From Burkholderiales bacterium (GTDB taxonomy: Bacteria; Pseudomonadota; Gammaproteobacteria; Burkholderiales; JACQAP01): 59,661 nucleotides of DNA. The notes beneath the pieces were generated by a model. The model was given only the letters and a program-made list of their open reading frames with translations, searched no databases and was not told the origin of the DNA. Shown here in pieces: positions 1,261-23,904 of the stretch. The stretch's first letter is position 1; each line of letters opens with the position of its first letter. The position numbers and the translations under genes are program-made. The stretch covers positions 1 through 59,661 of the forward strand of contig JBJXFN010000032.1 of assembly GCA_046155535.1 (NCBI GenBank), written 5' to 3'.

Positions 1261-1495
1261 TTCAGGAAAACCCATTTGCCACAGAGAACACAGAGGACGC
1301 AGAGAAAATCCGCAAGAAAAATCCAGTGAAACATTTCAATTGTCCGATGCGAAGGCAGTGGCAGATTGTTTGATACTTTTCATTGTGTCCGTGACCAACC
1401 TCAATCAGGATCAGTTTTTTCTTTTCAGGAAAACCCAGCTGCCACAGAGAACACAGAGAAAATTCGCAAGACAAATTCGGCGAAAATTCTCAATT
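1222..1495. repeat. Degenerate direct duplication (1222-1341 vs 1385-1495) of the oxidoreductase 5' end plus the adjacent repeat arm
   Basis: atcaggatcagt..ttcaggaaaaccca..tgccacagagaacacagag..aaaat.cgcaaga occurs twice; second copy translates GFPEKKKLILIEVGHGH vs GFPEMKRLILIGGGHSH and lacks one 9-nt unit. Confidence 0.85.
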
Positions 1496-1562
1496 CCCTT
1501 GCTTGTAAGCATAGACAGAACAATGGACTTTTCTCTGTGTTCTCTGTGACCTCTGTGGCAAA
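1275..1562. repeat. Intergenic inverted-repeat element A (arms of 3x 9-nt ACAGAG-type units)
   Basis: left tttgccacagagaacacagaggacgcagagaaaa (1275-1308); right ttttctctgtgttctctgtgacctctgtggcaaa (1529-1562). Confidence 0.9.
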
Positions 1563-1574
1563 AATTCTTTTAGT

Positions 1575-2303
1575 TCATTTCGGAGCATCGCCGGTAAGAA
1601 AGCGAATATCCCCGTACCACGCCACGACGGACTCACCGGTGTTGTCGGTATCGGTGGCGATGGCAATACCGGATATCGGCGGAGGGTCCTCTCCGAATGC
1701 CGCGCGAAAATCCTCCCGCACATTGCGCTGCAATTCCACCCAGCGGCCGACATTGGCGGCGCCGCTCTCGGCGACAATCACGCGCACCCGGTCGGTGTAG
1801 GCACTCCACATCGAGGTGTCGCGAGCAAGCCGCGCGTCCCAGACGTAACACAGCGCGGCCACCGGAATGTCCGCGCCGTACAACGCGCGGCCCATCTGGA
1901 TTTTCGTGCGGGTGCCGAATGACAACTTCCGGATATCGTAGTCGAACAGCACATAAATCCGGGCCGGGAAGTCGTCCCTGTCCTTGCTGGTCGGGTCGGA
2001 CTTATCCACCAGATTGTCAATTTTCCAGCGCCAGTTGATGACTGGCAGCACGTTCGGATCGATTTTCAGCGCATGGGTGAGGCTGGCCATCGAAGCGTTG
2101 GCTTCGGCTCGCAGAACCGTGATGCCCGCATCCTCGACAAGGGAGTAGCGGGTGTGCTTCTTGACTTTGGGCACGGCGGAAAAGCGCCACGGAGCAGGCA
2201 ACACCTCACCCGGGCTTGCAGTCGAGAAGGGCACGGGTCCGGTTTCTTCCGCTTTTGCTTGAAACGCGAGGCAAGTCAGCAGCACTGCTAGCGCGCGTTT
2301 CAT
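1575..2303 (-). CDS. DUF3047 family exported protein
   Basis: Signal peptide MKRALAVLLTCLAFQAKA; WRWKI, DDFPARIYVLF, LCYVW, IATDTDNTGE..AWYGDI motifs; ATGA overlap with upstream gene. Confidence 0.85.
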   Translation of the reverse strand: MKRALAVLLTCLAFQAKAEETGPVPFSTASPGEVLPAPWRFSAVPKVKKHTRYSLVEDAGITVLRAEANASMASLTHALKIDPNVLPVINWRWKIDNLVDKSDPTSKDRDDFPARIYVLFDYDIRKLSFGTRTKIQMGRALYGADIPVAALCYVWDARLARDTSMWSAYTDRVRVIVAESGAANVGRWVELQRNVREDFRAAFGEDPPPISGIAIATDTDNTGESVVAWYGDIRFLTGDAPK

Positions 2304-2950
2304 GGTTCGCCGCCGGGGTCCAGCGCGGGGACCCAGCCCTCCCGAACCAAGCGTTCGTAATCTTCCGGCCGGTCGAGGTCCCAGCGAACGGGCAGCTCGT
2401 GCCATCGCCACCCCAGGTTGCGCAGTCGCTGGCGCGTTTCCTCCATGACCTGGCCGGTGCCCCAGGGCATGGCGTCGAACAGGGCCGGCATGGCGTGGTG
2501 TACGCCCACGAGGCAATAGCCGCCGTCTTCCACCGGGCAAAACACGGCGTCGTTTCCCTCTTTCAGCATCGTTACGGCAGTACGCAAATCCGCGGTGTCC
2601 AGCGCGGGGCAATCGGTCCCGATCAGCAGCACCCGGCTTGCGCGGGTCAGCGCATCCGCAATCGCGCCCCGCATGCGCGCGCCGAGATCTCCATCGCACT
2701 GTGTGTGCAGGGTGGTGCCGAACCGGGTCTGGCTGGCGGCAAAGAATTCGTGGTGCACATCCGGCGCGCACCACAGTTCCAGCGGGCCGACCGCGGCGTC
2801 GCGTGCCATCGCAAGCGTGTGATCGGCCAGGTTCCGATACAGCGCGGCGGCACCGTGTTCGCCGAGCAGTGGAATCAGACGGGTCTTGACCCGGCCCGTC
2901 ACCGGCGCCCGGGCGAACAGCAGCACAGAGGAGTCGGCCTTATTTGCCAT
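2300..2950 (-). CDS. TIGR04282/DUF2064 family glycosyltransferase-like protein (rSAM/selenodomain-associated transferase 1)
   Basis: LLFARAP..GRVKTRL, Q.DGDLGARM, LIGTDCP, P.EDGGY.LVG, DLDRPED. Confidence 0.9.
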   Translation of the reverse strand: MANKADSSVLLFARAPVTGRVKTRLIPLLGEHGAAALYRNLADHTLAMARDAAVGPLELWCAPDVHHEFFAASQTRFGTTLHTQCDGDLGARMRGAIADALTRASRVLLIGTDCPALDTADLRTAVTMLKEGNDAVFCPVEDGGYCLVGVHHAMPALFDAMPWGTGQVMEETRQRLRNLGWRWHELPVRWDLDRPEDYERLVREGWVPALDPGGEP

Positions 2951-3638
2951 GGTAACGGCGGGCGAGTTGCGTCGGCGCGGCACCAAGAAAATAACGCAAG
3001 CGCAGGGACCACATGAAAAAGATGGTTCGCCAGATGCCGTCGCGTTCCCAACGCCGCGAGGAAGTGATCACGGTCTCGTGCAGGCAAAGTGGCGGCCCCA
3101 GCCGTTTGAGCCGACGGGAAAGTTCGATATCTTCCATCAACGCGATGTCGGCGAATCCGCCAACGGATTCGAATGCCCTGCGCTCGACAAAAATTGCCTG
3201 ATCGCCGGTCGCGATGCCGGTGAGTCGCGACCGCAGGTTCATCAAGGATTCGACACAACGCAGCATTCGCGCGCGGCCGGACAGACGCACATCGAATCGG
3301 CCCCAATGCCGTTGACTCTTCGAAAGCCCTTCGATGATGAAACGCTCGGCCTGTGGCGGAAGCTCGGTATCCGCGTGCAGGAACAGCAGAATATCCGCGC
3401 GTGCCTCTGCGGCGCCGGCATTCATCTGCGCCGCACGGCCGGGTGTGGGAGATTCGATCACCTGATCCACCAGGCCGGATGCCGCCTCGACTGTTCCGTC
3501 CCGACTTCCACCATCGGACAGGATGACTTCCACGCCGCGACGGCGCAGGGGCTGAAGTGCGGTGAGAAAGGCGACTATTCCTTCCGCCTCGTTCAGGGTC
3601 GGGACAACAACCGAGAGTCGATGCGACACCCGACTCAT
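2940..3638 (-). CDS. TIGR04283 family GT2 glycosyltransferase (rSAM/selenodomain-associated transferase 2)
   Basis: SVVVPTLNE, DGGS.DGT, GRAAQMNAGA, FLHADT, TGDQAIF, LMEDIE, TSSRRW; ATGA overlap with DUF547 stop. Confidence 0.9.
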   Translation of the reverse strand: MSRVSHRLSVVVPTLNEAEGIVAFLTALQPLRRRGVEVILSDGGSRDGTVEAASGLVDQVIESPTPGRAAQMNAGAAEARADILLFLHADTELPPQAERFIIEGLSKSQRHWGRFDVRLSGRARMLRCVESLMNLRSRLTGIATGDQAIFVERRAFESVGGFADIALMEDIELSRRLKRLGPPLCLHETVITSSRRWERDGIWRTIFFMWSLRLRYFLGAAPTQLARRYHGK

Positions 3639-4471
3639 CTTTTGTCGTTCAAGGACCAGTCGTAATCGAGAAACGTCAGTTTTACTTTCCTGTCGCGGAT
3701 GGACTGGCGGGCCGAGGTATCCGAAGCCAGGCGTTCGGCATACTTTGCCAGCCAGGCGGCTTCGGAACCGGCCTTGCCCGCGAAGTCCTTGCCGTACCAG
3801 TCGAAGATTTTCGAGATTTCCAGTTTTCCGGACTGGGGATTGAAGCGGTTGCGCGAGGCGTCGGAGAGAAACCGCTCGACGCCGTCCTCCAGTTGGGCAT
3901 CGAGTTTCCCGGCGACAAAGGCCTCGTTTCGCAAGGCCGGGCAACCGACCGAGGCGCAATTGACCGCCATGTGGATGCGCGGCTCGTCGAACACGCCGGC
4001 CGCGCGGATCATGCCCTGCTCGATGTCATCCAGATGCCGGGACTTGCCGAACAGGGTGAAGAAATTCTTCTTCCAGGGGCTGCGGGTCAGTGAGCCGAGG
4101 TCCTTGATGGATTTGAGCTTCGGATATCCTGTGAGGATCAGTTCCACCGTGAAGGCGTTGTAGGCATTGATCAAGAAGGCGAGCTGCTGCGGTTTGCTCC
4201 AGCCATCGTATTCCGCCTGGGTCACGGCGGAGAGTTGCGCCAGATAGGTTTTCAGCGCGGCATGGTCCGCCTGAAACCCCCGGTAATCCGACTGCGACGC
4301 ATTGCCCCCGGGAAGCCACACGACGTGCTTCTTCGCCAGCGTATCCCACTGCGCATGGGAATGGTCAAACGCCGCCTCGGCCGCGGGCGTGAACAGCCAA
4401 ACAAGACTCGACGCAAAGACGCAAAGGCGCAAAGAAAAGCGTGTAAAAAATTTTATCGGATCGTCAGTCAT
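3635..4471 (-). CDS. DUF547 domain exported protein
   Basis: LAFLINAYNA, LDDIE, EPRIHMAVNCASVGCP.L, SKIFDWY..DF, YDWSLN; start codon uncertain. Confidence 0.85.
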   Translation of the reverse strand: MTDDPIKFFTRFSLRLCVFASSLVWLFTPAAEAAFDHSHAQWDTLAKKHVVWLPGGNASQSDYRGFQADHAALKTYLAQLSAVTQAEYDGWSKPQQLAFLINAYNAFTVELILTGYPKLKSIKDLGSLTRSPWKKNFFTLFGKSRHLDDIEQGMIRAAGVFDEPRIHMAVNCASVGCPALRNEAFVAGKLDAQLEDGVERFLSDASRNRFNPQSGKLEISKIFDWYGKDFAGKAGSEAAWLAKYAERLASDTSARQSIRDRKVKLTFLDYDWSLNDKR

Positions 4472-4634
4472 TGCACGGTACTTTCTCTCAGAGGTATTTG
4501 GGTCAGGGAAGCCTTCATTGCAATTCATATCCATTGTTCATTCGTGTTCGACTTGACTCGCGGATAGTGAGTGTGCAATTCGAATCTTCATTATTTCCTG
4601 TCTTTCCTTTGCGTCTTTGCGCCATTGCGTCAAG
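4407..4634. repeat. Inverted-repeat element B (arms of 3x 8-nt CGCAAAG-type units), overlapping the DUF547 5' end
   Basis: left ctcgacgcaaagacgcaaaggcgcaaagaaaag (4407-4439); right ctttcctttgcgtctttgcgccattgcgtcaag (4602-4634). Confidence 0.9.
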
Positions 4635-4650
4635 GAAATTAATCGAGTTA

Positions 4651-6789
4651 TCAACCGCGCATCCAGGAGTGGTAGCGCGCTACCCACGCCAATAGTTTCT
4701 GCGGCGCATGGGCGCGCTTCCAGTTGCCGGCCACATATTTGTTGGCTTCCGCCAGCGTCGGGTAGATATGGATGGTGCCGAGTATCTTGTTCAGTCCGAT
4801 GCCATGGCGCATGGCGGCAACGTATTCGGCAATGAGATCCCCGGCATGTTCCCCGGCGATGGTCACGCCCAGAATCTTGTCCTTTCCCGGCACCGTCAAC
4901 ACCTTGATCAGGCCATGGGCTTCCGAGTCCGCAATGGCCCGGTCGAGATCGTCCAGTCCGTAGGTGGTGACTTCGAAGGGAATGTTCTTTTCCCGGGCTT
5001 CGGTTTCATTCAGGCCCACGCGTGCCACTTCCGGTTCGGTGAACGTGGCCCAGGGAATCACGGAATAGTCGGCACGGAATTTCCGGAAGCGGCCAAAGAG
5101 CGCATTCACCGCGGCATACCAGGCCTGGTGGGCAGCGGTGTGGGTGAACTGGTAAGGCCCGGCGACGTCGCCACAGGCGTAGATGTTTGGGTAAAGAGTT
5201 TGCAGAAATTCGTTGGTTTCCACGGTGCGTTGCCGGGTCGTCGGGATGCCAAGCTCTTCGAGGCCGTATCCCTTGGTGTTGGCGACGCGGCCTACCGCGA
5301 CCAGCACTTCGTCGAAGGGCACGCGGATGTCCTGCCCTTGATGTTCACAGATCAGCATTTTCTCGCCGTTTTCGACCAGAAATTGTTTGGCCTTGTGTTC
5401 GAGTTTGACGTCCACGCCTTCCGCGCGGAACTTTGCCAGCACCATCTGCGAAATCTCCGGGTCTTCGCGGATCATGATTCGCGGCAGCATCTCGACCTGG
5501 GTGACTTTCGATCCGAAGCGGGCAAAGGTTTGGGTCAATTCGCAGCCGATCGGTCCGCCACCCAGCACCACCAGACGGGCCGGCAGCTTGCGCAGATTCC
5601 AGACCGTGTCGGAAGTCAGGTAGCCGATCTGCTCGAGACCGGGAATGGGCGGCACAAAGGGACGGGCACCGGCGGCAATGATGATGGAGCAGGTGGTGAG
5701 CGTCTGATCGCCAATTTTGACTGCCCAGGGTGAAACGATTTTTGCCTCGCCCTGGATGCACTCCACGCCCAGGCGGGCATAACGCTCCACGGAATCGTGC
5801 GGCTCGACCTCCCGGACCACGCGCTGCACGCGTTCCATGACGTCCGCAAAGTCGTAATCGGCTCTGGCCTCGCGGATGCCGAACTCCGCCGAGCGTTTCA
5901 AGTGGGAGAGAAACTTCGCCGACCGGATGAGCGCCTTCGAGGGGACACAGCCGGTATTGAGGCAATCTCCCCCCATGCGGTGTTTTTCGATCAGCGTGAC
6001 TTTGGCTTTGACTGCGGCGGCAATGTACGCCGACACCAGGCCTGCCGAGCCGGCGCCGATCACCACGATATTGCGGTCAAACCGGCGCGGCCGGGGAAAG
6101 CGGGCGTACACCTTGCGTGCCTTGATCATGTCGATGATCTTTTTGGCGATCAGCGGAAATAGCCCCAGCAGCGTGAACGAGGCAATCAGCATGGGGGAGA
6201 GAATCCCCGACGCCGAATCGATCCGGGCAATCTGGGTGCCCGCATTCACGTAGACGATGGTGCCCGCCAGCATGCCAAGCTGGCTGACCCAGTAAAACGT
6301 GGCGGTGCGCAGCGGCGTCAGGCCCATTGCCAGGTTGATCACAAAAAACGGAAAGGCCGGGACGAGCCTCAAGGTGAAAAGGTAAAACGCGCCTTCTTTT
6401 TCGATGCCGGCATTCAGGGCGCGCAGCTTGTCGCCGAATTTCGCCTGCACGGAATCTCGCAGCACGAATCGCGAAACCAGAAACGCCAGGGTCGCACCGA
6501 TGCTGGAGGCGAACGAGACAATTATGGCTCCCCACAGCAACCCGAAAATCGCACCGGCAGCAAGCGTCAGGATGGCGGCGCCGGGCAGCGACAGGCCGGT
6601 GACCGCGACATAGGCCAGGAAAAACATGGCCGCTGTTGCAAGCGGATGCGCAGCGAATTGCGCATCCATCTCGCCTTGCCGGGATTTCAGGTAAGCAAGA
6701 TCGAAAAATCGTTCGAGGTCGAAGGCAAAAAAAGCCACAGCCAGCGCGGCAATGGCAAACAACAGCAATAACCGTCCTTTGGTAAACAA
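4651..6789 (-). CDS. VTT/TVP38 (DedA-like) membrane domain fused to a class I pyridine nucleotide-disulfide oxidoreductase (LpdA/MerA-like)
   Basis: N-terminal SLPGA, LRLVP.FPFFVIN; then VIGAGSAG, GGDCLNTGCVPSK, LGGGPIGCE, HIYPTLAE; probable TTG start at 6789 after GGAGGA. Confidence 0.88.
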   Translation of the reverse strand: MFTKGRLLLLFAIAALAVAFFAFDLERFFDLAYLKSRQGEMDAQFAAHPLATAAMFFLAYVAVTGLSLPGAAILTLAAGAIFGLLWGAIIVSFASSIGATLAFLVSRFVLRDSVQAKFGDKLRALNAGIEKEGAFYLFTLRLVPAFPFFVINLAMGLTPLRTATFYWVSQLGMLAGTIVYVNAGTQIARIDSASGILSPMLIASFTLLGLFPLIAKKIIDMIKARKVYARFPRPRRFDRNIVVIGAGSAGLVSAYIAAAVKAKVTLIEKHRMGGDCLNTGCVPSKALIRSAKFLSHLKRSAEFGIREARADYDFADVMERVQRVVREVEPHDSVERYARLGVECIQGEAKIVSPWAVKIGDQTLTTCSIIIAAGARPFVPPIPGLEQIGYLTSDTVWNLRKLPARLVVLGGGPIGCELTQTFARFGSKVTQVEMLPRIMIREDPEISQMVLAKFRAEGVDVKLEHKAKQFLVENGEKMLICEHQGQDIRVPFDEVLVAVGRVANTKGYGLEELGIPTTRQRTVETNEFLQTLYPNIYACGDVAGPYQFTHTAAHQAWYAAVNALFGRFRKFRADYSVIPWATFTEPEVARVGLNETEAREKNIPFEVTTYGLDDLDRAIADSEAHGLIKVLTVPGKDKILGVTIAGEHAGDLIAEYVAAMRHGIGLNKILGTIHIYPTLAEANKYVAGNWKRAHAPQKLLAWVARYHSWMRG

Positions 6790-6824
6790 GAGTCCTCCCG
6801 GGATATTTTCAGGTTTGTTTAAAT

Positions 6825-7772
6825 CTATACCGCGATGCGCGCCTGCGGAACGGAAAATCGTGGGCCGTAATCGATGCGTTCGTGGTACGAGAGATGGGCG
6901 TCGGATCCCGCGGGCCAATTACCCAGAAAACGTTTCATCCATGCCACGTGATCGTAGTCGAGCCGGACGGCGTCCACGTGTGCGCCGTCGATCACGTCGC
7001 CGTAGAGCGCGGCACCCGCAGGCGCAGGGGTCAGGCCGATGCGTGTCACCAGTCCGTATCGGGTTCCCGCGAAATTCGGCATTCCGGCAGCCCCGTTGTT
7101 GACGACCGCCATGCGACGGCCCGCCACGAGAAATGACTTCCATACAGGCAGGCAGGTGTGGCTGCTGGCGAATACCTGCACCCCCGCCTGTTCGAACCAG
7201 CGTGCGCAGCGATCCGCCGAGTCGTGATCAGACAAGGCGCCATGGGAGAATTGCCACCCGGCCAGCGATTCCGCGTCGCCATGCACGATGCCCACGCGCA
7301 ACCGCCCGACTTGCGCCACCGCATACATCGGAAGGGAATCCAGGACCGCGCGCGCGTGCGGGAAGGCACGGGCGGTTTCGCGCAGCGTGGCGATGATCCG
7401 GTTGGAGCGCTCGACTTCGCCATCATTTACATCGTCCGGATAGGCGCAACCGCAGCCCGCCGGATCGTCTTCGCCGGCCAGTTCGGTTTCCACGTTGCCG
7501 CGCAGGGCGATGTGGGACAGCGCCGCATCATTGACGAGAGAAAATGACGCCGGATCGATATCGAACCAATGGAAATCGCCATTGAACACGACCATCGGCC
7601 GGTCTGACTCCTGATCGAGCAGCCGGTTCAACGCGTTCAGCGCTTCGACGTTGCCATACAAACCCCCGACGACATAAATCACATTGGCTGATATGGCGTC
7701 GAGCGAGCGCAATGCCCGTGGCGTATAACGATAATGCAGGGGGCAATGGCGACCGGGAGCATTCTGGTTCAT
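6825..7772 (-). CDS. Metallophosphoesterase-like conserved protein
   Basis: GGLYGN, NGDFHWFD, LRGNVE, VHGD, SSHT, NNG match degenerate calcineurin-like motifs; also GCGCAYP. Confidence 0.65.
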   Translation of the reverse strand: MNQNAPGRHCPLHYRYTPRALRSLDAISANVIYVVGGLYGNVEALNALNRLLDQESDRPMVVFNGDFHWFDIDPASFSLVNDAALSHIALRGNVETELAGEDDPAGCGCAYPDDVNDGEVERSNRIIATLRETARAFPHARAVLDSLPMYAVAQVGRLRVGIVHGDAESLAGWQFSHGALSDHDSADRCARWFEQAGVQVFASSHTCLPVWKSFLVAGRRMAVVNNGAAGMPNFAGTRYGLVTRIGLTPAPAGAALYGDVIDGAHVDAVRLDYDHVAWMKRFLGNWPAGSDAHLSYHERIDYGPRFSVPQARIAV

Positions 7773-7901
7773 GGAGTCGGTGCGAACTTGTTACGGAAAC
7801 AGGAATTCAAACACAATGTAGCCCAATACGTTGCGGGAAGGGGAACTGGATGCGCAGTGCAAAGAGTCCGGGGGTTGCCCCACAGCGGGGATGAAGGTTC
7901 C

Positions 7902-9374
7902 ATGAAAAGCAGGGCGAACATGGCAGTCGCGTTGTTGTGGCTGGCGGGGTGTGCCACGATCCAGGAGCCGCTGCGGGGGAGTCTTTCCGCGCCGGATGCG
8001 GGCGTGGCCGAGTGTGCCAGATGGTTTCAGACACTTGACCGGCAAATTGACGCGGCCGGTGTGCGGGACGGCGGCGAGTTCCGGATACCGGGGTTTCCTT
8101 ACCTGCGCACCGATCGATTCATGGCCTCGTTTCGCACGTCCGCGACAGAGGGCCCCGCGCGGGATGCCTGGCTTGCGCGTTTGCGAGCGCTGGATCGCGC
8201 AGCGCGGAATGCGGAATTGCGCAATCTTCCGGAGGCCGCCTTTCGTGCGCTCGGGATCGATCGGCAGGACGTTGCGCCCCGCACAGAATTTTGCGCACGG
8301 ACCCTTTTGTCCCATGACCGGGACCAACCGGGCACCGCGACACAGCTGGCAGAGCGGGCGAAAGTGCCGGACGACTATCGCACCTGGCAGCGGGCACTGG
8401 GTTTGTACGGGCTCGTCAGCGTTCCCTTTTCCGCGGGTGTCGAGGACTGGCAACGAGATGCGGTGGAGGCCTTCCGCCGTTCCGCTGCCGGCGAAGCGGC
8501 ATTCGAGCGTTCATTCGAGTACCGGCCGCAGACTGCGATGATTCGTGAAGACCCGGAAACGATTTTTACCCGCAGCCAGGTGGATGCGCTCGGCATTCAG
8601 TCATTTTCGCCGGAGGATGCGGAGCGCTTGTTTGAGGCGTATGCGCCGGTCATTGAAATGGAGGCGGGCGGCAGTTTCGATGAAATCGGCCGGATTGCCT
8701 GGCAGGACGGCGCATTACCTGGCGTGCAGACCACCGCGCCCACCGTGTATCGCAAGCTTGTCCATACCCGGTACGGCGCCGAAACCCTGGTGCAACTGGT
8801 GTACGTGGCCTGGGTCTCCGAACGTCCGCACCGGAATGTGTTCGACCTGCTGGCCGGCAAACTCGATGGCGTGGTCTGGCGGGTTACGCTGGATCGCCGC
8901 GGTTCGCCTTTGCTCTATGACACCATTCATCCTTGCGGATGTTTCCATATGTTTTTCCCCGTTGAGGGGGTGGAGCCGCGCGCTGCGCCATCGAAGTGGG
9001 TCGAATGGGCGTTCGCACCGGCGCCCGCGCCCCGCCTTGCATCAGGCGAACGGATCCGGGTGCGCTTGCAGTCACGCACCCATTACATGGTTGGCATCTC
9101 TGCGGACGGCGGCAATGGCGGAAGGGAATACGTTTTTGCCGACTACGACACCTTGCGCGCATTGCCGCACGCGAATGGCTCCCGCAGTTTTTTTCGCCCC
9201 GACGGGCTGATTGCCGGGACGGAGCGTGGCGAGCGAATGTTTTTCTGGCCCATGGGTGTGCCCAGTGCGGGGGCGATGCGGCAGTGGGGACATCACGCGA
9301 CCGCGTTTCTCGGGCGGCGGCATTTTGACGATGCGGATTTGATCGATCAGAGATTTCGCCTGCCTTTGCAGTAG
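7902..9374 (+). CDS. Uncharacterised lipoprotein
   Basis: Lipobox LAGC after hydrophobic leader; long ORF; YDTIHPCGCFH and MRQWGHHATAF.GRRHFDD motifs. Confidence 0.75.
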   Translation: MKSRANMAVALLWLAGCATIQEPLRGSLSAPDAGVAECARWFQTLDRQIDAAGVRDGGEFRIPGFPYLRTDRFMASFRTSATEGPARDAWLARLRALDRAARNAELRNLPEAAFRALGIDRQDVAPRTEFCARTLLSHDRDQPGTATQLAERAKVPDDYRTWQRALGLYGLVSVPFSAGVEDWQRDAVEAFRRSAAGEAAFERSFEYRPQTAMIREDPETIFTRSQVDALGIQSFSPEDAERLFEAYAPVIEMEAGGSFDEIGRIAWQDGALPGVQTTAPTVYRKLVHTRYGAETLVQLVYVAWVSERPHRNVFDLLAGKLDGVVWRVTLDRRGSPLLYDTIHPCGCFHMFFPVEGVEPRAAPSKWVEWAFAPAPAPRLASGERIRVRLQSRTHYMVGISADGGNGGREYVFADYDTLRALPHANGSRSFFRPDGLIAGTERGERMFFWPMGVPSAGAMRQWGHHATAFLGRRHFDDADLIDQRFRLPLQ

Positions 9375-9433
9375 GTTGCACGCGGTTTCTCCACGAGACG
9401 ATTGGATGCGACGAGTCGGTTTTCCCTAAGCAT

Positions 9434-16881: not shown

Positions 16882-16941
16882 ATCATTGGAAACAACTCGT
16901 TATAATCTTTGTCACCTTGCCGGCAAAAGAAAGAAGGCGCG

Positions 16942-18480
16942 ATGTTGAATTGGATCAAGGGATCGAAATCCGAACATCCTCTTGCAGAGGACAAGACGAC
17001 CCGCGAACTGCTGACCGAATTGCCGGCCAACGACCCGTTCAAAAGCCTGGAAGAACTTTCGCACTGGCTGGACTCCCTTATCGGCTCCGAGGATTTGAAG
17101 ATTTCCAGGAATCTGGAAGTCATCGACCTGATCGACCAGGCCGCGAAGCCGCATCTGCGCCGGTTATCGGTAGAGTACATTTCCGGCGGTGCGCGATTGC
17201 AGAAATTCCAGGAAATCCGCATCTGGAACTCGGTTTTCAAACTCTGGCGCAAACTTGCCGAAGCCTACCAATATTGCATCGCGTGTTACCACGCCGGAAC
17301 CGCCGGTGCGGGCGCCGTCAAGGGGCAGGTGCCCATGATGACGGCGCGCGCCTTGCGAGCTTTGAACAGTCAGCTCAAATGGCAGTACCTGCGCTATGGG
17401 CCCGTTGCCACCAGATTGTGGGAACAGTTCGGCTGGGCGTTCTCCTTTGCGGAAGAAAAGGGTTTCGTGCGTTCCAAGGTGACGGTGTATCCGGGTCCTT
17501 TTGGTGAATCGTCCATCGAGCGCGAATTTCTCAAAAGCCTGATGCTCGCGATGTCCTCGACCGACAGCTTGTTGCCGACCAAGCTGGAAATCGCCGAACG
17601 GGTGGTCGCCCAGTTTTCGGAGTTTTTCAAGTTGGAATTGCGCGCAGCGCAGGGTTGCCATTTTTACTTCGATCTGGCGCGCAATCGTCCGCCGGCCAGA
17701 CTGATGTCCGATCTGGCAATGCAACCGGGCATTCGCTTCTTTGGCCCGGGCACTGCGTCGGAAGAATTGGCGAAGGTCATAACGCTGGTCGAGCGTTCCG
17801 GGGCGGTGCCATCGAGCATCAACCTGGGCGGCACCTATGAACCGGAAATGGTGTTGGAGGTGCTGCGACATCTGGCCCTGTACTGGTCGCCGGTGCCGCC
17901 TGCCCGCATTTCCGAACGACACAACTCGGTTTCGCGGATCAGCGTCGTGCACGATTTCAATGAAATTGTCGACACGATATCCGGGGATACCGAGGATCTG
18001 TCGTTTGACAGCTCCATCGAAACCTGGATGGTCGAGAATGAAAGTGAAGGTGGATATGGTGCACTGCTGCCCTTTGCCAAAAGCGACTGGCTGAAAGTGG
18101 GAACCTTGCTCGGTGTAAAACTGGAAGGCGGTGCCGCATGGGGTGTCGGGGTGGTGCGGCGCCTGTCGGCTTATGACTTGAAGCAACGTTATGTCGGCAT
18201 TCAGTTGTTGTCCAAAGGAGGCGCAGTGGTCAAGGTAAGCACCTCGGACGTGACCGGCGCGCCGGGGAGGGAGAGCGCCGTGTTATTGCCCTCGAATGCG
18301 GCGGACAGCACCAAGAGTCCGGAAATGCAATTGCTGCTCAGGCCGGGAACATATTCCCCGCTAAAAAGCCTGGGGATGATCGCCTATGAACGGAGTTACG
18401 TCCTGATGCCGCGCAAGCTGCTGGAAAGCGGGGAGGACTTCGATCTGGTCCGAGTGAAGGTCATGCAACGAGCGCAATAA
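16942..18480 (+). CDS. Conserved protein with C-terminal PilZ-like motifs (FimW-like candidate c-di-GMP receptor)
   Basis: RISER (RxxxR) followed by NESEGG (N/DxSxxG); helical N-terminus; TATAAT at 16901 upstream. Confidence 0.55.
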   Translation: MLNWIKGSKSEHPLAEDKTTRELLTELPANDPFKSLEELSHWLDSLIGSEDLKISRNLEVIDLIDQAAKPHLRRLSVEYISGGARLQKFQEIRIWNSVFKLWRKLAEAYQYCIACYHAGTAGAGAVKGQVPMMTARALRALNSQLKWQYLRYGPVATRLWEQFGWAFSFAEEKGFVRSKVTVYPGPFGESSIEREFLKSLMLAMSSTDSLLPTKLEIAERVVAQFSEFFKLELRAAQGCHFYFDLARNRPPARLMSDLAMQPGIRFFGPGTASEELAKVITLVERSGAVPSSINLGGTYEPEMVLEVLRHLALYWSPVPPARISERHNSVSRISVVHDFNEIVDTISGDTEDLSFDSSIETWMVENESEGGYGALLPFAKSDWLKVGTLLGVKLEGGAAWGVGVVRRLSAYDLKQRYVGIQLLSKGGAVVKVSTSDVTGAPGRESAVLLPSNAADSTKSPEMQLLLRPGTYSPLKSLGMIAYERSYVLMPRKLLESGEDFDLVRVKVMQRAQ

Positions 18481-18500
18481 ATTGCAGGCGGCCGCCCTGG

Positions 18501-19166
18501 TCACACCAGAATACGTCGCAGCCAGACGCCGATATCCGTAATTTCCTCGGGACACACCGAGTGCGGCATCGGGTACTGGTGCCACTCCACTGCATAGCCC
18601 AGCGCCGACAGGCGCTCACGTGCCGCCGTCCCGAGTTTCATCGGCACCACATTGTCGGTGCTGCCATGCGCGATGAACACCGGCACACCGTGGTTCGACG
18701 CATGGCGTTCCTTCTCCAGGGTGTCGGATAGCGGTAGATAGGCCGACAGCGACATGATGCCGGCCAGCCGGTTTGCGTGGCGTAACCCGGTATGCAGGGC
18801 CATCACGCCTCCCTGGGAAAATCCCGCCAGAACGATACGATGCGCGGGGATAGAGCGCTGCACTTCGTGTTCGATCAATTTTTCGATCAATGCGGCAGAT
18901 TGGCGAATGCCTTTCTCGTCCGGCCTGCGGTCCAGGTCCTGGCCGGTGATGTCATACCAGGCGCGCATCACGAATCCGCCATTGATGCTCACCGGTTGCA
19001 TCGGGGCGTGTGGGAACACGAAACGCACGCCAAAGGCCGGCAATTTGAGTTCGGGCACCACGGGCGCAAAATCATTGCCGTCCGCACCCAGGCCGTGCAG
19101 CCAGATCACGGCGTGGGTCGGTTTGGGCCGGGTTTCTATTTCTATTGCTTGCAGCAGTTCTGTCAT
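18501..19166 (-). CDS. Phospholipase/carboxylesterase (alpha/beta hydrolase)
   Basis: WLHGLGADG, MRAWYDI, GFSQGG, HG..D.VVP, Y.MPHSV. Confidence 0.93.
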   Translation of the reverse strand: MTELLQAIEIETRPKPTHAVIWLHGLGADGNDFAPVVPELKLPAFGVRFVFPHAPMQPVSINGGFVMRAWYDITGQDLDRRPDEKGIRQSAALIEKLIEHEVQRSIPAHRIVLAGFSQGGVMALHTGLRHANRLAGIMSLSAYLPLSDTLEKERHASNHGVPVFIAHGSTDNVVPMKLGTAARERLSALGYAVEWHQYPMPHSVCPEEITDIGVWLRRILV

Positions 19167-19178
19167 GAAAAGAGTTCC

Positions 19179-19310
19179 TTGCCGCAGAGGCACAAAGGCA
19201 CGGAGGTTGCGCGAAGTGATTCGGATAGGGTCGATTCGTCGATGGGTGGCGCGTCCCTGGCATTCATTTTCTTCTCATCCTTTGCTTTGGTTCTGCGCCT
19301 TGGCGGTAAA
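19179..19310. repeat. Degenerate inverted-repeat element C (8-nt unit arms) between mog and the esterase
   Basis: left ttgccgcagaggcacaaaggcacggagg; right arm reverse complement tttaccgccaaggcgcagaaccaaagcaaagg. Confidence 0.6.
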
Positions 19311-19313
19311 GGT

Positions 19314-19907
19314 TCAGGTCTTCGGGCGGATCGCGGATTTCGGCCGGAAGGACTTGACGATGGTTTCGTCGGTCTCGATGTATGGCCCGCCGATCAAGTC
19401 TATGCAGTAAGGGACCGCGGCGAATATGCCGGGGACCTTCTGTTTGCCCTCGGCGTCTTTCAGGCCTTCCAGGGTTTCCTTGATGGATTTGGGTTGGCCG
19501 GGAAGAGTGATGATCAGCGTTCGTCCGCGGATGACACCGACCTGGCGCGACAGGATTGCGGTAGGAACAAAATTCAAACTGATCTGGCGCATTTGTTCGC
19601 CGAAGCCGGGCATTTCCCGATCGGCCACGGCGAGTGTTGCTTCGGGCGTGACGTCTCGCGGGGCCGGACCGGTGCCACCGGTGGTCAACACCAGATGGCA
19701 GCCCTCCGCGTCGCACAATGCCTTCAGCGTGGCCTCGATCTGCGGGCGTTCGTCCGGAATCAACCGGGTCAGCACGCGGCGGGGGGTCGTTATCACGCGA
19801 CCCAGCCATTCTTCGAGCGCGGGGATCCCCTCGTCCTTGTAAACGCCTTTGGATGCCCGGTCGCTGATGGACACCAGGCCGATGATCACTTGTTCGTTTT
19901 CGGTCAT
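19314..19907 (-). CDS. mog: Molybdopterin adenylyltransferase
   Basis: SISDRAS.GVY.DEGIPAL, TTGGTGPAPRDVTPEAT, MPGFGEQMR, LPGQPKSI. Confidence 0.96.
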   Translation of the reverse strand: MTENEQVIIGLVSISDRASKGVYKDEGIPALEEWLGRVITTPRRVLTRLIPDERPQIEATLKALCDAEGCHLVLTTGGTGPAPRDVTPEATLAVADREMPGFGEQMRQISLNFVPTAILSRQVGVIRGRTLIITLPGQPKSIKETLEGLKDAEGKQKVPGIFAAVPYCIDLIGGPYIETDETIVKSFRPKSAIRPKT

Positions 19908-19917
19908 GAAACCATTG

Positions 19918-20076
19918 AAACACGGAGGACACGGAGAACACGGAGAAAAAACTGAATGCCCGCAGGATCTGCGCGGGTAACAAAAATATCGCTTGTTGCC
20001 TGGTCAACTCGACTGCGCTGTCTTTCTCCAGTCTCTATAGTGGGTTTCCTCCGTGATCTCCGTGTCCTCCGTGGTT
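19918..20076. repeat. Inverted-repeat element D (arms of 3x 9-nt ACGGAG-type units)
   Basis: left aaacacggaggacacggagaacacggagaaaa (19918-19949); right tttcctccgtgatctccgtgtcctccgtggtt (20045-20076), overlapping the yjgA stop codon. Confidence 0.92.
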
Positions 20077-20572
20077 AATTGCTTCGGGAGTTCAGAATTT
20101 CCCGCAGTTCCTGGAACAGTTCGCGAAAGTTCTTCGGCGGTTTTCCCGCAGCGTATTCCATCCTGGTGTTGCGGATCAAGGTGCGCAGGCGCTGGGCATC
20201 CGCGCCCGGAAAATCATCCAGAAATTCCTGCAATGCCGGATCCTCGGCGAGCAGGCGGGTGCGCCAGTGTTCGATCCGGTGGAGTTGCGCCGTATCCTGG
20301 CGCGAAACGCCGCTCCAGATGTCGAGTTGACGGCGAATGGCGTCGCCGTCGCTGTCTTCGCGCATCAGGCGGCCGATGTATTGCATTTGTCTGCTCAGGG
20401 CGCCGAACTTTGTGATGTTCCTGGCTTCCAGCACTGCATCGAGCAGCCGCTCCGAAAGATTCAGTTGCCGCAACTTGTCCGCGGGCAGGGCCACCAACTC
20501 CTCGCCGATGTCCTGCAATGCATGGTCGAGCTTTTTGCGCTGCGTCTTGCTTAGGGGCAGGTCGTCAGACAT
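20075..20572 (-). CDS. yjgA: Ribosome biogenesis factor YjgA/DarP (DUF615)
   Basis: SKTQRKK, LQDIGEELV, RQMQYIGRLMR, LR.LIRN, RELFQ; divergent from pmbA. Confidence 0.93.
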   Translation of the reverse strand: MSDDLPLSKTQRKKLDHALQDIGEELVALPADKLRQLNLSERLLDAVLEARNITKFGALSRQMQYIGRLMREDSDGDAIRRQLDIWSGVSRQDTAQLHRIEHWRTRLLAEDPALQEFLDDFPGADAQRLRTLIRNTRMEYAAGKPPKNFRELFQELREILNSRSN

Positions 20573-20665
20573 TGCGACGAGTCAGGGAGTGGATGGTGAA
20601 TCAACTGGTATCATAGCGAAAAAATCTCCCGCCGCGCCTCCCTTTCTTGTGCATCGACTCCATTC

Positions 20666-22030
20666 GTGAATTCCATTCCGATTTCGCAGCATTCCGACCA
20701 GACCTTTGCCAGCGACCCGTCTCTGCTGCGCCAGATTGCCCACGATGTGCTTGCGCACGCCCGGGCGGAAGGCGCCAGTGCGGCCGAAACCGAAGTCAGC
20801 GAATCTTTCGGGCAAAACGTGACGGTGCGCCGGGGCGAAGTGGAGACCATCGAATACAACCGGGACAAGGGTCTGGGCGTCACGGTCTATATCGGCAAGA
20901 GCCGAGGCCATGCCAGCAGCTCGGATTTTTCCGGCAAGGCGATCCGCGACACGGTGCAGGCCGCCTTGTCGATTGCACGACTGACCGCTGCGGATGAATT
21001 CTCCGGGCTGGCGGAGCCGGAGTTGCTGGCGACCGAGTTTCCGGACCTCGAATTGTATTTCCCCTGGGAATTGACGGTGGAGCAAGCCATTGAAAAGGCG
21101 CGGGCCTGCGAAGACGCAGCATTTGCTGCGGACCCGTCGATCAGCAATTCCGAAGGTGCGAGTGTTTCGGTGCAGCAGGCGCAGTTCGTGTACGGGAATT
21201 CGAGTGGTTTTCTTGCCGGATATCCGAGTTCCCGGCACAGTATTTCCTGCGCTGTCATTGCCGGCAAGGACGACGCAATGCAGCGGGACGACTGGTACAC
21301 CAGCGCCCGCGACCCCGCGGACTTGGATTCGGAAATACAAGTTGGCACGCGCGCCGGAAAACGCGCGGCACGGCGAGTGGGCGCCCGCAAGTTGCCCACC
21401 GCCAAGGCGCCCGTCCTCTACGAGGCGCCGGTCGCGGGCGGACTGCTGGGCCACTTCGTAGCCGCCGTCAGCGGGGGCAGCCTGTATCGCAAGTCCTCTT
21501 TCTTGCTCGATTGCATCGGCAAGCAGGTGTTTGCGCCGGGTATCCGGATTCGCGACCTGCCGCATATCCGGAAAGGCCTGGCCAGCAGTGCTTTCGACGA
21601 CGAAGGCGTAGCCACCCGGGCGCGCGACATTGTGGAGCGCGGGATGTTGCAGGGCTATTTTCTGGGCAGCTATTCGGCGCGCAAGCTGGGCATGCAGACC
21701 ACAGGCAACGCCGGCGGCAATCACAATCTGCTTCTGGATCCCACGGCAGGAGACCTGGCGACGCTGATGAAAATGATGGGCCGCGGATTTCTGGTGACCG
21801 ACCTGCTGGGGCAGGGCATCAACATGGTGACTGGCGATTACTCCCGGGGCGCAGCCGGATTCTGGATCGAAGACGGCGAAATTGCGTTTCCGGTGCAGGA
21901 AGTCACCATTGCCGGCAACCTGCGGGACATGTTTCGAAATATCGTTGCGGTCGGCAACGACATCGAAGTTCGTGGATCGCGCCGGTGCGGCTCTGTTCTG
22001 GTCGAGGGCATGACGATGGCAGGAGAATGA
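20666..22030 (+). CDS. pmbA: Metalloprotease component PmbA/TldE
   Basis: VRRGEVETIEYNRDK, MQRDDWY, GGSLYRKSSFL, FDDEGV, TGDYSRGA.GFW, TIAGNL. Confidence 0.96.
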   Translation: MNSIPISQHSDQTFASDPSLLRQIAHDVLAHARAEGASAAETEVSESFGQNVTVRRGEVETIEYNRDKGLGVTVYIGKSRGHASSSDFSGKAIRDTVQAALSIARLTAADEFSGLAEPELLATEFPDLELYFPWELTVEQAIEKARACEDAAFAADPSISNSEGASVSVQQAQFVYGNSSGFLAGYPSSRHSISCAVIAGKDDAMQRDDWYTSARDPADLDSEIQVGTRAGKRAARRVGARKLPTAKAPVLYEAPVAGGLLGHFVAAVSGGSLYRKSSFLLDCIGKQVFAPGIRIRDLPHIRKGLASSAFDDEGVATRARDIVERGMLQGYFLGSYSARKLGMQTTGNAGGNHNLLLDPTAGDLATLMKMMGRGFLVTDLLGQGINMVTGDYSRGAAGFWIEDGEIAFPVQEVTIAGNLRDMFRNIVAVGNDIEVRGSRRCGSVLVEGMTMAGE

Positions 22031-22032
22031 AG

Positions 22033-22129
22033 ACGGTGAACGGTAAATGGTGAACGGTGAATGGTGAATGGTGAAAAACCCTCACCCCTCAATCCGCAAT
22101 CCCGAACCCAGACTCTCGAATTCTCGAAT
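22033..22129. repeat. 7-nt tandem arrays right after the pmbA stop: 6x A(C/T)GGTGA then degenerate CCCTCAC/TCCCGAA-type units
   Basis: acggtga acggtaa atggtga acggtga atggtga atggtga aaa, then ccctcac ccctcaa tccgcaa tcccgaa cccagac tctcgaa. Confidence 0.85.
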
Positions 22130-22135
22130 TTCTTC

Positions 22136-22771
22136 ATGCTCTCGCCATCCAACATGCTCGCAGCGCTGCTTCGGGCAGCACTGGCGACCCTCTTGTTCGG
22201 CGGGTTGGCGGCGTGCGGCGACAAAATTCCGTCCTTGCCGAAGTTGGGTCAGAGTGACGTGGTGCTTGCCTTCGGGGACAGCCTGACCTACGGCACCGGT
22301 GCGGGCGAACAGGAGAGTTATCCCCGAATACTGGCGAGGTTGATCGGACGCGAGGTCGTGGGCGCCGGGGTGCCGGGCGAGGTGAGCGCAGAGGGACTGG
22401 AACGCCTGCCGGGTGTGATAGAGGAATTCAAGCCGAAACTTCTGCTGCTCTGCCTGGGCGGTAACGACATGCTGCGCAAAATCGACAGCGCGGTCACCGA
22501 GTCCAATTTGCGCGCGATGGTGCGCCTGGCCAGGGAACGGGGGGTCGCGGTAATGTTGATTGGTGTGCCGCAGCCCGTGCTCTTCGGTGGCAACGCTGCG
22601 TTCTATGAGAAGATCGCTGAGGAACTTGCCGTTCCCATCGAAAACAAGGTGCTTCAGGAAGTGTTGTTCGACAAAAAACTCAAGTCCGACACGATTCATC
22701 CCAACGCCGAAGGCTACCGGCAAATGGCCGAAGCCATCGCCGGGTTGCTTCGCAAGGCCGGGGCAATTTGA
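22136..22771 (+). CDS. GDSL/SGNH arylesterase lipoprotein (TesA-like)
   Basis: LAAC lipobox, AFGDSLT, GGND, D.IHPN. Confidence 0.9.
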   Translation: MLSPSNMLAALLRAALATLLFGGLAACGDKIPSLPKLGQSDVVLAFGDSLTYGTGAGEQESYPRILARLIGREVVGAGVPGEVSAEGLERLPGVIEEFKPKLLLLCLGGNDMLRKIDSAVTESNLRAMVRLARERGVAVMLIGVPQPVLFGGNAAFYEKIAEELAVPIENKVLQEVLFDKKLKSDTIHPNAEGYRQMAEAIAGLLRKAGAI

Positions 22772-22800
22772 ATTGGGGGCAAATGCTGCAAAACAACGCG

Positions 22801-22944
22801 TTCACCGCAGTGGACGTGGAAAAAAGTCGCAGAGAGTGCGGGAAGGGTTATTCGAAATTCACACGAGTATGAAAACAGAAACATTGATTCCCTTCCGTAC
22901 CAATGTCTGCGTCGAAAAGGCGTTGGAAAAATTCCCTCGCTGAG
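22801..22944. repeat. Possible highly degenerate member of the inverted-repeat element family
   Basis: ttcaccgcag..cgcagagagtgcgggaaggg on the left can pair with cccttccg..tctgcg on the right; AT-rich centre; intergenic. Confidence 0.3.
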
Positions 22945-22946
22945 TC

Positions 22947-23756
22947 ATGGCCAAGGCAAGGCAGGCGCTGCAGCTCCATGATGTCACCTGCACCTTTGGT
23001 GCGCGCGCGGGCATCCCTGCCTATACCGCGGTGGAAAACGTCGATATCGCGGTGGCGGAAGGCGAATTCGTATCGGTCGTCGGGCCCACCGGCTGCGGAA
23101 AATCCACGCTACTGAATGTCGCGGCAGGATTGCTCGCCCCCACGCGCGGCAGCGTGCAGGTGTTCGGTGAGCCGCTACGGGAGATCAATTCGCGTGCCGG
23201 TTATATGTTCCAGAGTGATGCTTTGATGCCGTGGCGCACAACACGCGAAAACGTCGCCGCCGGGCTCGAATTTCGCGGGGTGACGCCCAGCGAGATCGGC
23301 GCCGGGGTGGAGGACTGGTTGCGGCGCGTGGGCCTTGCCGCCCATGGGGGAAAATATCCGCATCAGCTTTCCGGCGGGATGCGCAAACGGGCTGCACTGG
23401 CGCAAACCTTGATTCTCGATCCCAAAATCCTGTTGATGGACGAGCCGTTTTCGGCGCTGGACGTGCAAACCCGCAGCCTGATGGAGAACGAACTGCTGGC
23501 ACTCTGGCAGCAGGATCGCAAGTCAGTGTTGTTTGTCACCCACGACCTGGAAGAGGCCATTGCGCTGTCGGATCGGGTAGTGCTGCTGTCCGCTGGTCCC
23601 GCCAGCAGGCCGATTGGGGAATTCCCGATCGACCTGCCGCGCCCGCGCGACGTGGCGGAAATTCGCCTGACCCCCGGTTTTCTCGAATTGCACAGGCGCA
23701 TCTGGGATGCCTTGCGCGACGAAGTGCAGAAGGCCTACGCCCATGCTCTGGACTAA
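22947..23756 (+). CDS. NitT/TauT family ABC transporter ATP-binding protein
   Basis: GPTGCGKST, LSGGM, LLMDEPFSALD, VTHDLEEA. Confidence 0.95.
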   Translation: MAKARQALQLHDVTCTFGARAGIPAYTAVENVDIAVAEGEFVSVVGPTGCGKSTLLNVAAGLLAPTRGSVQVFGEPLREINSRAGYMFQSDALMPWRTTRENVAAGLEFRGVTPSEIGAGVEDWLRRVGLAAHGGKYPHQLSGGMRKRAALAQTLILDPKILLMDEPFSALDVQTRSLMENELLALWQQDRKSVLFVTHDLEEAIALSDRVVLLSAGPASRPIGEFPIDLPRPRDVAEIRLTPGFLELHRRIWDALRDEVQKAYAHALD

Positions 23757-23774
23757 GCTTGAAACCACAATTCC

Positions 23775-23904
23775 GCCACAGAGAACACAGAGAACACAGA
23801 GAGAGATTTAGGGGTTTGGGCCAGAATGCTGCACCGACCACGGCAAGCATCAAAGACAATGTTCATTCCTGATATTTCTCTGTGAACTCTGCGTCCTCTG
23901 TGGC
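23775..23904. repeat. Inverted-repeat element G (arms of 3x 9-nt ACAGAG-type units)
   Basis: left gccacagagaacacagagaacacagagaga (23775-23804); right tttctctgtgaactctgcgtcctctgtggc (23875-23904). Confidence 0.92.

Follow-up and report, generated by a model that had tools for sequence, protein, structure and literature searches.

What are the elements with mirrored, tandemly repeated arms that lie between genes in a 59,661-nucleotide (nt) stretch of DNA from a Burkholderiales bacterium (assembly GCA_046155535.1, contig JBJXFN010000032.1, positions 1 to 59,661; hereafter the window)? An earlier prediction made from the letters alone (the original prediction) had described four clear copies, one degenerate copy, and one doubtful copy between positions 1275 and 23904, and had suggested that they could be non-autonomous mobile elements or RNA-structural elements. 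We recovered all four clear copies where it had placed them, with their arms as inverted repeats. The family to which these elements belong is real, abundant, and dynamic, and they are probably gene-less members of a family of small palindromic insertion cassettes that ride operons, comparable to MITEs (miniature inverted-repeat transposable elements).

We surveyed the 3.81-Mb genome assembly to which the window belongs (263 contigs, 59.8% G+C), as the original prediction had suggested. A scan for specific units returned 235 arm clusters and 68 left/right pairs, and a second scan, which looked for any array of short period that had an inverted partner, whatever its unit, returned 70 pairs and added the 7-nt families GGTGAAC, GAGGTGC, and GTGACGG. 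The merged catalogue holds 86 paired elements, mostly 100-190 nt long. A strict arm pattern, CRCRRAG-N1-2-CRCRRAG-N1-2-CRCRRAG, matched the whole genome 68 times in forward and 67 times in reverse orientation (135 matches), whereas the reversed pattern used as a control gave 0 + 0.

The repeated core of the clear window copies is a heptamer: CACAGAG in 1275-1562 and 23775-23904, CACGGAG in 19918-20076, and CGCAAAG in 4407-4634. Units are spaced by 1-2 nt, giving a period of 9 nt for CACAGAG and CACGGAG and of 8 nt for CGCAAAG. The original prediction was thus right about triplets of short tandem units but not about the hexamers ACAGAG and ACGGAG as their core. Read from outside to inside, 102 strict arms yield the end consensus tTtaaC-CACgGAG-GA-CACgGAG-aA-CACgGAG-aAAA-accAa, which can be generalized to TT(G/T)(A/C)(A/G)C-CACRGAG-GA-CACRGAG-AA-CACRGAG-(G)AAAA. 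By this consensus, each arm is a conserved terminal inverted repeat, ~45 nt long and with three heptamers inside it, rather than a free array. The commonest outer hexamers are TTGAAC, TTTCAC, and TTTTGC, and 45-170 nt of variable sequence separate the two ends. Periods are 8-9 nt in class I elements, to which these belong, and 7-8 nt in class II.

The elements show a strong preference for short spacers between co-directional genes. Genes were called with a home-made dicodon caller, whose strands agree with Pfam in the window and whose start codons are approximate. Among the 79 elements with two called neighbors (six that abut a contig edge and one that falls within a called gene were excluded), 72 have co-directional neighbors, compared with 2026 of 2831 background gaps (binomial p 2e-5). 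Stop and arm are separated by a median of 19.5 nt, arm and following start by a median of 31.5 nt. Each window copy is likewise flanked by co-directional genes according to the Pfam annotation of its neighbors, as had been predicted.

Genes are found between arms of the same kind. The cargo genes of this genome comprise five GxxExxY genes (TIGR04256; one frameshifted) and four matches to the four-helix-bundle family PF05635 (one broken by a TGA stop). All nine are flanked by inverted arms, and all nine are co-oriented with both neighbors. The five GxxExxY genes have CRCRRAG-type arms (CGCAAAG, CACGGAG, CACAGAG, CACGAAG, and CGCGGAG). Three of the four four-helix-bundle genes are bordered by tandem units (GTGAATG, GTGAGGC, and GAACGGT), the fourth by GGC-rich inverted arms without a definable unit. 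One GxxExxY copy, G000:C249:12959-13302 (L025), is a decaying cargo gene, split over two frames and carrying internal stops between arms that are still good.

The association extends well beyond this genome. We examined the best 80 of at least 587 GxxExxY relatives in species-representative genomes, a set whose phyla include Planctomycetota, Acidobacteriota, Chloroflexota, Bacteroidota, Verrucomicrobiota, Gemmatimonadota, and Desulfobacterota, together with a Methanothrix. At 48 of the 80 loci, from many phyla, at least two C[AG]C[ACG][AG]AG units stand on each side of the gene, against a chance expectation, by our own arithmetic, of ~0.17 units per flank; CACAGAG is dominant in 30 of these 48. 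Where strands could be called at these loci, 37 of 42 upstream neighbors and 36 of 37 downstream neighbors lie on the same strand as the cargo gene. Gene-bearing versions and the window elements share the same kind of arms, here and across phyla, and the cassette link raised in the original prediction is thereby confirmed. At least 149 viral or proviral contig stretches in IMG/VR also carry the class I arm pattern, far above a rough chance estimate. Of 80 such loci that were fetched, 16 have a partner arm within 900 nt, and none contains a GxxExxY motif.

The GxxExxY protein corresponds to Pfam PDDEXK_3 (E about 1e-40), and 44 sequences show little or no variation at the PD-(D/E)xK positions D65, E75, and K77. 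Its predicted structure (predicted local distance difference test score 95) gave weak, generic Foldseek matches to PD-(D/E)xK proteins (Cas4, RecB-type, Hjc; best E 2.7e-3), and a sequence search of the PDB returned no match. A survey of the PD-(D/E)xK superfamily lists the function of PDDEXK_3 as "Unknown" (PMC3424549). In the literature on GxxExxY, PDDEXK_3, or PF13366, we found incidental mentions only and no description of these arms.

Comparison of orthologous junctions in 18-24 congeners, including the darP(yjgA)-mog and ABC ATPase-permease junctions that the original prediction had singled out, revealed both filled and empty sites. The gene order darP-mog-abh is conserved in the genus. 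Among 19 relatives, the darP>mog junction holds a clear element in 11 (with at least four unit types) and none in 5, and is unclear in 3. Its units are CACGGAG in L010 and L013, which carry orthologues of window copy 19918-20076; CACAGAG in L002, L008, and L017; CACAGAGA in L003; and CGCAAAG or CGCRGAG in L005, L006, L007, L009, and L019. In L004, a 32-nt spacer retains a single unit. The mog>abh junction is occupied by clear elements in 11 of 17 relatives and by degenerate ones in 2, and is empty (20-79 nt) in 4. The ATPase>permease junction in 21 relatives contains a class I element in 10, none in 8, and a different hairpin repeat in 3. In the nearest relative, G018, 4 nt separate the stop codon of the ATPase from the start of the permease, whereas the window has an insert of ~170 nt there, spanning ~23754-23925 and bringing a new stop codon at its left edge. 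A contig from a ~95% identical strain joins 23752 to 23956 via 31 other letters. Elements nested within elements occur in L009 and L007. Orthologous junctions that are filled, empty, or type-replaced show that the elements come and go as DNA. The presence/absence and type turnover at three junctions, the empty G018 site, and the nested insertions together support the mobile-element half of the original prediction.

Three of these relatives (L270, L273, and L279) carry a different hairpin repeat at the ATPase>permease junction, its arms consisting of small CCCTCTCC/GGAGAGGG palindromes, and small palindromic insertions in general seem to collect at this junction. A palindromic repeat of ~39 nt sits inside the arm heptamers in L009, L010, L016, L017, and L283, sometimes twice per arm; its short motifs occur ~4 times in the genome of the window. 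The neighboring lipase-ATPase gap measures 566-729 nt and contains extra coding sequence in L272, L277, L278, L280, and L283. This sequence is lipoprotein-like in all of these except L280, which has a different reading frame, and it is adjoined by GAGGGAC-type heptamer arms in L277, L278, and L283 (far side).

The two arms of one copy tend to use the same unit, as the original prediction had observed. The same dominant core occupies both arms in 32 of 39 strict elements, whereas 15.7 would be expected and the highest count among 2000 shuffles was 26. In the CACGGAG group, similarity between the arms of one element is 0.865, compared with 0.825 between elements (reached in 0/2000 shuffles); in the CACAGAG group, the values are 0.767 and 0.786, with no own-arm excess. 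Because L005, L006, L007, L009, and L019 are alike in their flanks and in the first part of the spacer, their darP>mog element is orthologous. The units at this site are CGCAAAG/CTTTGCG in L005 and CGCAGAG/CTCTGCG in L019, and L007 is half-changed: its left arm has G-type units and its right arm A-type ones, a combination that is entirely G·U on the mRNA strand. In three orthologous groups, arm identity is 0.69, 0.58, and 0.83, spacer identity is 0.53, 0.39, and 0.63, and shuffled spacers reach 0.49, 0.36, and 0.53.

Arms that are conserved beside randomized spacers, and a paired unit change that passes through a G·U intermediate, are features that would suit RNA structures selected by the host for upstream message stability, as processing sites, or for translational coupling, with spread being secondary. 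The same can be said of the 91% of elements that lie between co-directional genes and of the very stable RNA folds of the four clear copies, for which none of 200 shuffles was as stable (z -7.9 for 19918-20076, -6.6 for 23775-23904, -5.6 for 4407-4634, and -4.6 for the composite copy 1275-1562). The same role has been proposed for hairpins between cyanobacterial hupS and hupL (PMC2670836). We nevertheless consider this explanation unlikely. On the mRNA strand, G·U pairs do not exceed A·C mismatches, either over all aligned arm positions (111 vs 117) or among isolated mismatches with two matches on each side (35 vs 33), so selection on RNA pairing was not detected. In addition, the same junctions are empty in close relatives, spread is patchy and burst-like within one order (0 to about 310 arm matches per genome), and of the related copies, 5 share one orientation relative to transcription and 2 have the opposite one. 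The arm co-variation claimed in the original prediction holds at the level of unit type and at one orthologous site; selection on pairing is not supported. The missing G·U excess, the two orientations, and the presence/absence polymorphism point to a DNA-level element whose arms would be kept alike by conversion, reinsertion, or element-level selection. Its RNA stem may be tolerated or useful.

Arms could also be made in place without any mobility, with slippage expanding the heptamers and hairpin-templated repair or conversion copying one arm onto the other at susceptible sites. Such processes would explain why unit numbers are unequal between the arms of some copies (2 vs 3 or 3 vs 4), why the same 29-nt insertion is mirrored in both arms of L008, and how whole arms change unit at one orthologous site; heptamer number also varies between Coxiella strains (PMC4990558). 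As the origin of the arms, this account is very unlikely given that about 100 loci share the 45-nt end consensus, including the outer and inner stretches that are not repeats, that spacers of copies at unrelated loci are 70-77% identical, and that the same unit family surrounds GxxExxY in distant phyla. Slippage and conversion probably do take place, but in the upkeep of arms rather than in their creation.

We next considered which enzyme could move DNA-level insertion cassettes of this kind. In an order-wide survey of 121 genomes, in which GxxExxY was counted above cut-off, the arm pattern was present in 40 genomes (1 to about 310 matches, with similar forward and reverse counts) and GxxExxY in 17. 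At least five arm matches were found in 16 of the 17 genomes with GxxExxY, compared with 15 of the 104 without it. The association between arms and GxxExxY across the order is strong, not obligatory, and the GxxExxY nuclease is the leading candidate for the enzyme that moves the elements. Because hairpin-forming, intergenic, multi-copy repeats without a clear target duplication also recall repetitive extragenic palindromic (REP) sequences and the REP doublets termed REPINs, we weighed the possibility that a REP-associated tyrosine transposase (RAYT; an IS200/IS605-like Y1 HUH transposase) moves the elements and that the cargo genes are passengers. The genome does contain three Y1_Tnp (RAYT-like) matches, but clustered units lie within 900 nt of none of them, compared with all nine cargo genes. 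The arms are also far longer than REP sequences, are made of tandem units, and accompany GxxExxY across phyla, making a RAYT-driven origin highly improbable.

Several observations count against regarding the elements as members of a mobile cassette family served by this nuclease. No transposition was observed, and we found no near-identical copies at separate loci; the best independent pairs are 70-77% identical, and the pair C83/C213, at 95.5%, has one flank in common. The target duplications that the original prediction had proposed to look for amount to a single possible case, a 4-nt GGAY in the comparison with G018, and none was seen in alignments of sister copies. A six-frame profile search of the 86 elements for remnants of the nuclease gene matched only two gene-bearing elements and none of the gene-less ones. 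Arms that stay alike while spacers fall to the level of shuffles require conversion, reinsertion, or selection and are not what purely selfish, decaying DNA would show, and the lack of a G·U excess weighs against strong selection on an RNA stem. The congener G046, whose genome is 100% complete, has 172 arm matches and no GxxExxY match, so the nuclease is dispensable for element persistence. The arm-nuclease association is partly trivial, because each gene brings its own two arms, and it is inflated by relatedness among genomes that are not independent. Finally, unit variants show no association with the GxxExxY protein tree (20 changes vs 20-21 in five shuffles). Specific recognition of units by the protein is therefore unsupported, and we dropped the idea of a cognate unit for each nuclease paralogue.

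With these points in mind, we propose how the cassettes might persist. Full versions carry a single small gene, which is flanked by arms of this kind and points in the direction of the host operon; CRCRRAG arms go with PD-(D/E)xK nuclease cargo, and GTGAnnG- or GACAGAR-type arms with the four-helix-bundle protein of 23S rRNA intervening sequences (IVSs). The elements would spread as DNA and be retained at harmless positions, immediately past a stop codon and ahead of the following ribosome-binding site, where they would be read through within the operon transcript. Their arms could then pair into a stem of ~25-35 bp with mismatches that RNase III might cleave, by analogy with the heptamer-armed IVS of Coxiella. 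Such cutting would make an insertion tolerable at the RNA level, so that the long stem formed by the arms may be the reason why insertions are tolerated. The enzyme that mobilizes or maintains the elements would most likely be the GxxExxY nuclease, which would act in trans on the heptamer repeats.

The features of the window are collected in Table 1, along with two 23S rRNA insertions from other genomes that are discussed below.

Table 1. Positions of heptamer-armed elements and related tracts in the window, and of 23S rRNA insertions in two other genomes
Feature	Position	Strand	Description
Composite class I element, CACAGAG units	1275..1562	(-)	Outer arms 1275-1308 and 1529-1562; inner extra arm 1436-1465
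Partial tandem duplication	1241-1341 vs 1404-1495		Direct repeats 91% and 81%, spacing 163 and 154 nt
Class I element, CGCAAAG units, 8-nt period	4407..4634	(-)	Arms ~4408-4436 and ~4606-4632
Degenerate class I element	19179..19310	(-)	Left arm 19183-19205, right arm ~19279-19306
Class I element, CACGGAG units	19918..20076	(-)	Between DarP/yjgA stop (20075) and mog start (19907)
Class II tract, six GGTGAAY heptamers 22035-22076	22035..22108	(+)	Directly 3' of pmbA stop
Decayed element	22801..22944	(+)	Between GDSL lipase and ABC ATPase; residual stem ~22826-22848/22890-22914
Class I element, CACAGAG units	23775..23904	(+)	Between ABC ATPase stop (23756) and permease start (23932)
Lone GTCACCC x3 tract	23953..23979	(+)	Reverse complement of class II unit, within 5' end of permease frame
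Heptamer-armed IVS of G102	L111 2700-3162		GACAGAR arms 35 nt, 91% complementary; 127-residue PF05635 open reading frame
Helix-25-region insertion of G052 23S rRNA	L110 2039-2172		135 nt, plain 20-bp stem, no tandem units

The composite copy lies between the DUF3047 stop (1575) and the Pyr_redox_2 start (ATG 1260 is likelier than 1275), and its outer arms form an inverted repeat of 34 nt that is 88% complementary. Its inner arm stems from the direct duplication of ~100 nt within 1241-1495, which copied one arm together with the beginnings of the downstream gene and of the spacer. Copy 4407-4634 separates the stop of a VTT/Pyr_redox fusion gene (4651) from a DUF547 gene. In the DUF547 frame (4400-4534), there is no in-frame start from the element to the conserved part, and by hand translation a TTG at 4432, in the arm, leads into a plausible signal peptide; the arm may therefore supply the first DUF547 codons. 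In copy 19918-20076, the DarP/yjgA stop codon directly adjoins the arm. Copy 23775-23904 has sister copies at C222:8111, C77:1631, and C139:1673.

The degenerate copy, flanked by the stop codon of mog (19314) and the start of Abhydrolase_2 (19166 or 19193), is a degenerate class I element. Its left arm at 19183 still matches the strict three-unit pattern although the stem has decayed (fold z -0.7), and 11 of 17 relatives have clear elements at this junction. The doubtful copy, 22801-22944, is a decayed element. It folds better than shuffles (fold z -3.2), with a residual stem that falls within the coordinates of the original prediction. A search for the family end at up to three mismatches found none there (the outer left end scores 20/25 by hand count). 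Two further tracts had been overlooked in the original prediction, namely the GGTGAAY array (22035-22076) and the GTCACCC x3 tract (23953-23979). In the former, the heptamers are followed by a weakly complementary, C-rich stretch with 7-nt periodicity, and the hairpin is unconvincing (fold z -1.1). An open reading frame (ORF) start at 22061 falls within the heptamers and is probably spurious; ATG 22137 provides a signal-peptide-like start for the GDSL lipase. The GTCACCC x3 tract lengthens the N-terminus of the permease (23932-23994) by ~13 codons, and is present in G018 and absent from other congeners.

Other readings of the window copies were set aside. A role as transcription terminators was dropped because, by eye, the stems have no consistent T-run after them, and coding repeats were dropped because periods of 7 and 8 nt cannot encode a peptide repeat. 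An integron attC reading was abandoned in view of the syntenic housekeeping flanks across the genus and the outer hexamers TTGAAC/TTTCAC/TTTTGC, with no search for an integrase having been made. We also compared public sequencing data, consisting of DNA contigs and one RNA run (contigs, 6% of sampled words). Public short-read contigs end at arms (19919-20135, 23391-24041), and many foreign contigs stack there. Depth peaks and apparent joints at 19947-20045 and 23802-23875 could suggest excision, a reading that we rejected because they reflect other repeat copies landing on the arms.

These elements have practical consequences for genome analysis. Metagenome assemblies are fragmented by them, because contigs break at their arms, and the arms yield false starts and N-terminal extensions in gene calls (22061, 4432-4534, and 23932). 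Cargo genes inside operons have also been taken for functional partners of their neighbors. For example, 23S_rRNA_IVP genes found in cas operons, such as between cmr3 and cmr2, have been interpreted as such partners (PMC3936711).

Finally, we compared the family with known repeat systems. No published description of it was found in the literature searched, and no described REP or MITE family matched it, Rfam giving no family at gathering score anywhere in the window; its nearest analogues are the 23S IVSs, the short tandemly repeated repetitive (STRR) hairpins of cyanobacteria, and Correia elements. The TAACTGA repeats of marine Beggiatoaceae likewise consist of tandem heptamers between genes and are patchily distributed over phyla (PMC4679880). 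Unlike the window family, they are direct repeats rather than inverted, hairpin-forming pairs, with 169 direct sets and one indirect set described, mostly just upstream of start codons (PMC4679880). REPIN-RAYT systems resemble the family in that a population of hairpin repeats exists beside a few protein genes flanked by the same repeats, but the flanked genes here encode a PD-(D/E)xK nuclease and a four-helix-bundle protein instead of a Y1 HUH transposase, and none of the three Y1_Tnp genes is flanked by repeats.

The family has most features of a MITE. Its members are small, non-coding, multi-copy, and bounded by terminal inverted repeats (86 elements with an end consensus and no coding remnant), and orthologous sites are polymorphic for their presence or absence. 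Potential parents exist in the gene-bearing versions, whose ends are the same; the product of these is an uncharacterized PD-(D/E)xK nuclease and no known transposase. What separates the family from the definition of MITEs is thus a clear target duplication and an enzyme known to be a transposase. Correia elements (Correia repeat enclosed elements, CREE, or Neisseria miniature insertion sequences, NEMIS) have plain 26-bp terminal repeats, a TA target duplication, and a site for integration host factor. The window family differs from them in its triple-heptamer ends, in that no TA duplication was seen, and in a candidate enzyme that is no known transposase. The two are alike in being small, non-coding, multi-copy, furnished with terminal inverted repeats, and, as is probable for the window family, co-transcribed with their neighbors. 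Correia elements count among the MITEs, and RNase III binds or cleaves their hairpin (PMC2649163).

STRRs are reportedly also found inside an RNase P RNA gene. The STRR hairpin between hupS and hupL is the nearest published architecture: 7-bp tandem repeats form a potential hairpin between the two genes, with proposed roles in transcript stability or translational coupling (PMC2670836). Inverted arrays of tandem units that give a hairpin between co-transcribed genes are present in both systems, and the proposed coupling echoes the idea in the original prediction that the hairpin brings stop and start codons together. The phylum differs, the gene content of the window (a DarP/YjgA gene divergent from pmbA) looking proteobacterial, and the unit sequences probably differ as well; the passage on hupS-hupL draws no link between STRRs and cargo genes or mobility (PMC2670836).

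The 23S IVSs offer a parallel in both ends and cargo. A search for a 23S gene in the assembly of the window found none. In G102, a three-contig genome of the same order, the 23S genes are 3373 nt long and contain an insertion of ~460 nt (Table 1). The Coxiella IVS has a 28-bp terminal stem with three tandem GACAGAT heptamers ahead of an S23p ORF, its heptamer copy number differs between strains, and RNase III cuts have been mapped within the stem (PMC4990558). The genome of the window itself encodes RNase III. Because the G102 insertion and the Coxiella IVS share heptamer arms and a PF05635/S23p ORF, the cassette architecture is that of a classical IVS; the plain-stem insertion in the 23S gene of G052 shows that this architecture is not common to every IVS. 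Terminal inverted repeats that form a long stem occur in the window elements as in IVSs, including that of G102, and tandem-heptamer arms are known from both the Coxiella and G102 IVSs. ORF-less IVSs exist, for example in Salmonella, and ORF-less forms are found here too. ORF-bearing forms are present in both rRNA genes and this genome, where the IVS ORF family is the cargo of class II arms, and 23S_rRNA_IVP genes also occur in rRNA insertions of candidate phyla radiation bacteria (PMC11270868). The window elements differ in their CRCRRAG units with a period of 8-9 nt and in gene-bearing relatives that carry a PD-(D/E)xK nuclease. They are not true 23S IVSs, as all of them lie between protein-coding genes and not in helix 25 or 45 of 23S rRNA.

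A broader reading, which we advance tentatively, is that the 23S IVS is the best-known landing site of "transcript-riding" cassettes that exist across phyla in nuclease, four-helix-bundle, or empty form, and that both proteins are mobility or maintenance factors that recognize the heptamers. Such cassettes would be rendered harmless by excision from, or tolerance within, any host transcript (rRNA, RNase P RNA, or operon mRNA). In environmental bacteria, few small proteins of unknown function are as common as GxxExxY/PDDEXK_3 and the four-helix-bundle protein of 23S IVSs, and this reading, if true, would assign a function to these two very abundant families and to IVSs, whose origin and mechanism have been lacking for decades (discussed in PMC4990558). 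The shared ends make the question testable, since they provide a defined substrate (three CRCRRAG heptamers) and a defined candidate enzyme. What is new, within the literature searched, is that gene-less hairpins, GxxExxY cassettes, four-helix-bundle cassettes, and a 23S IVS share an end architecture and a lifestyle across phyla.

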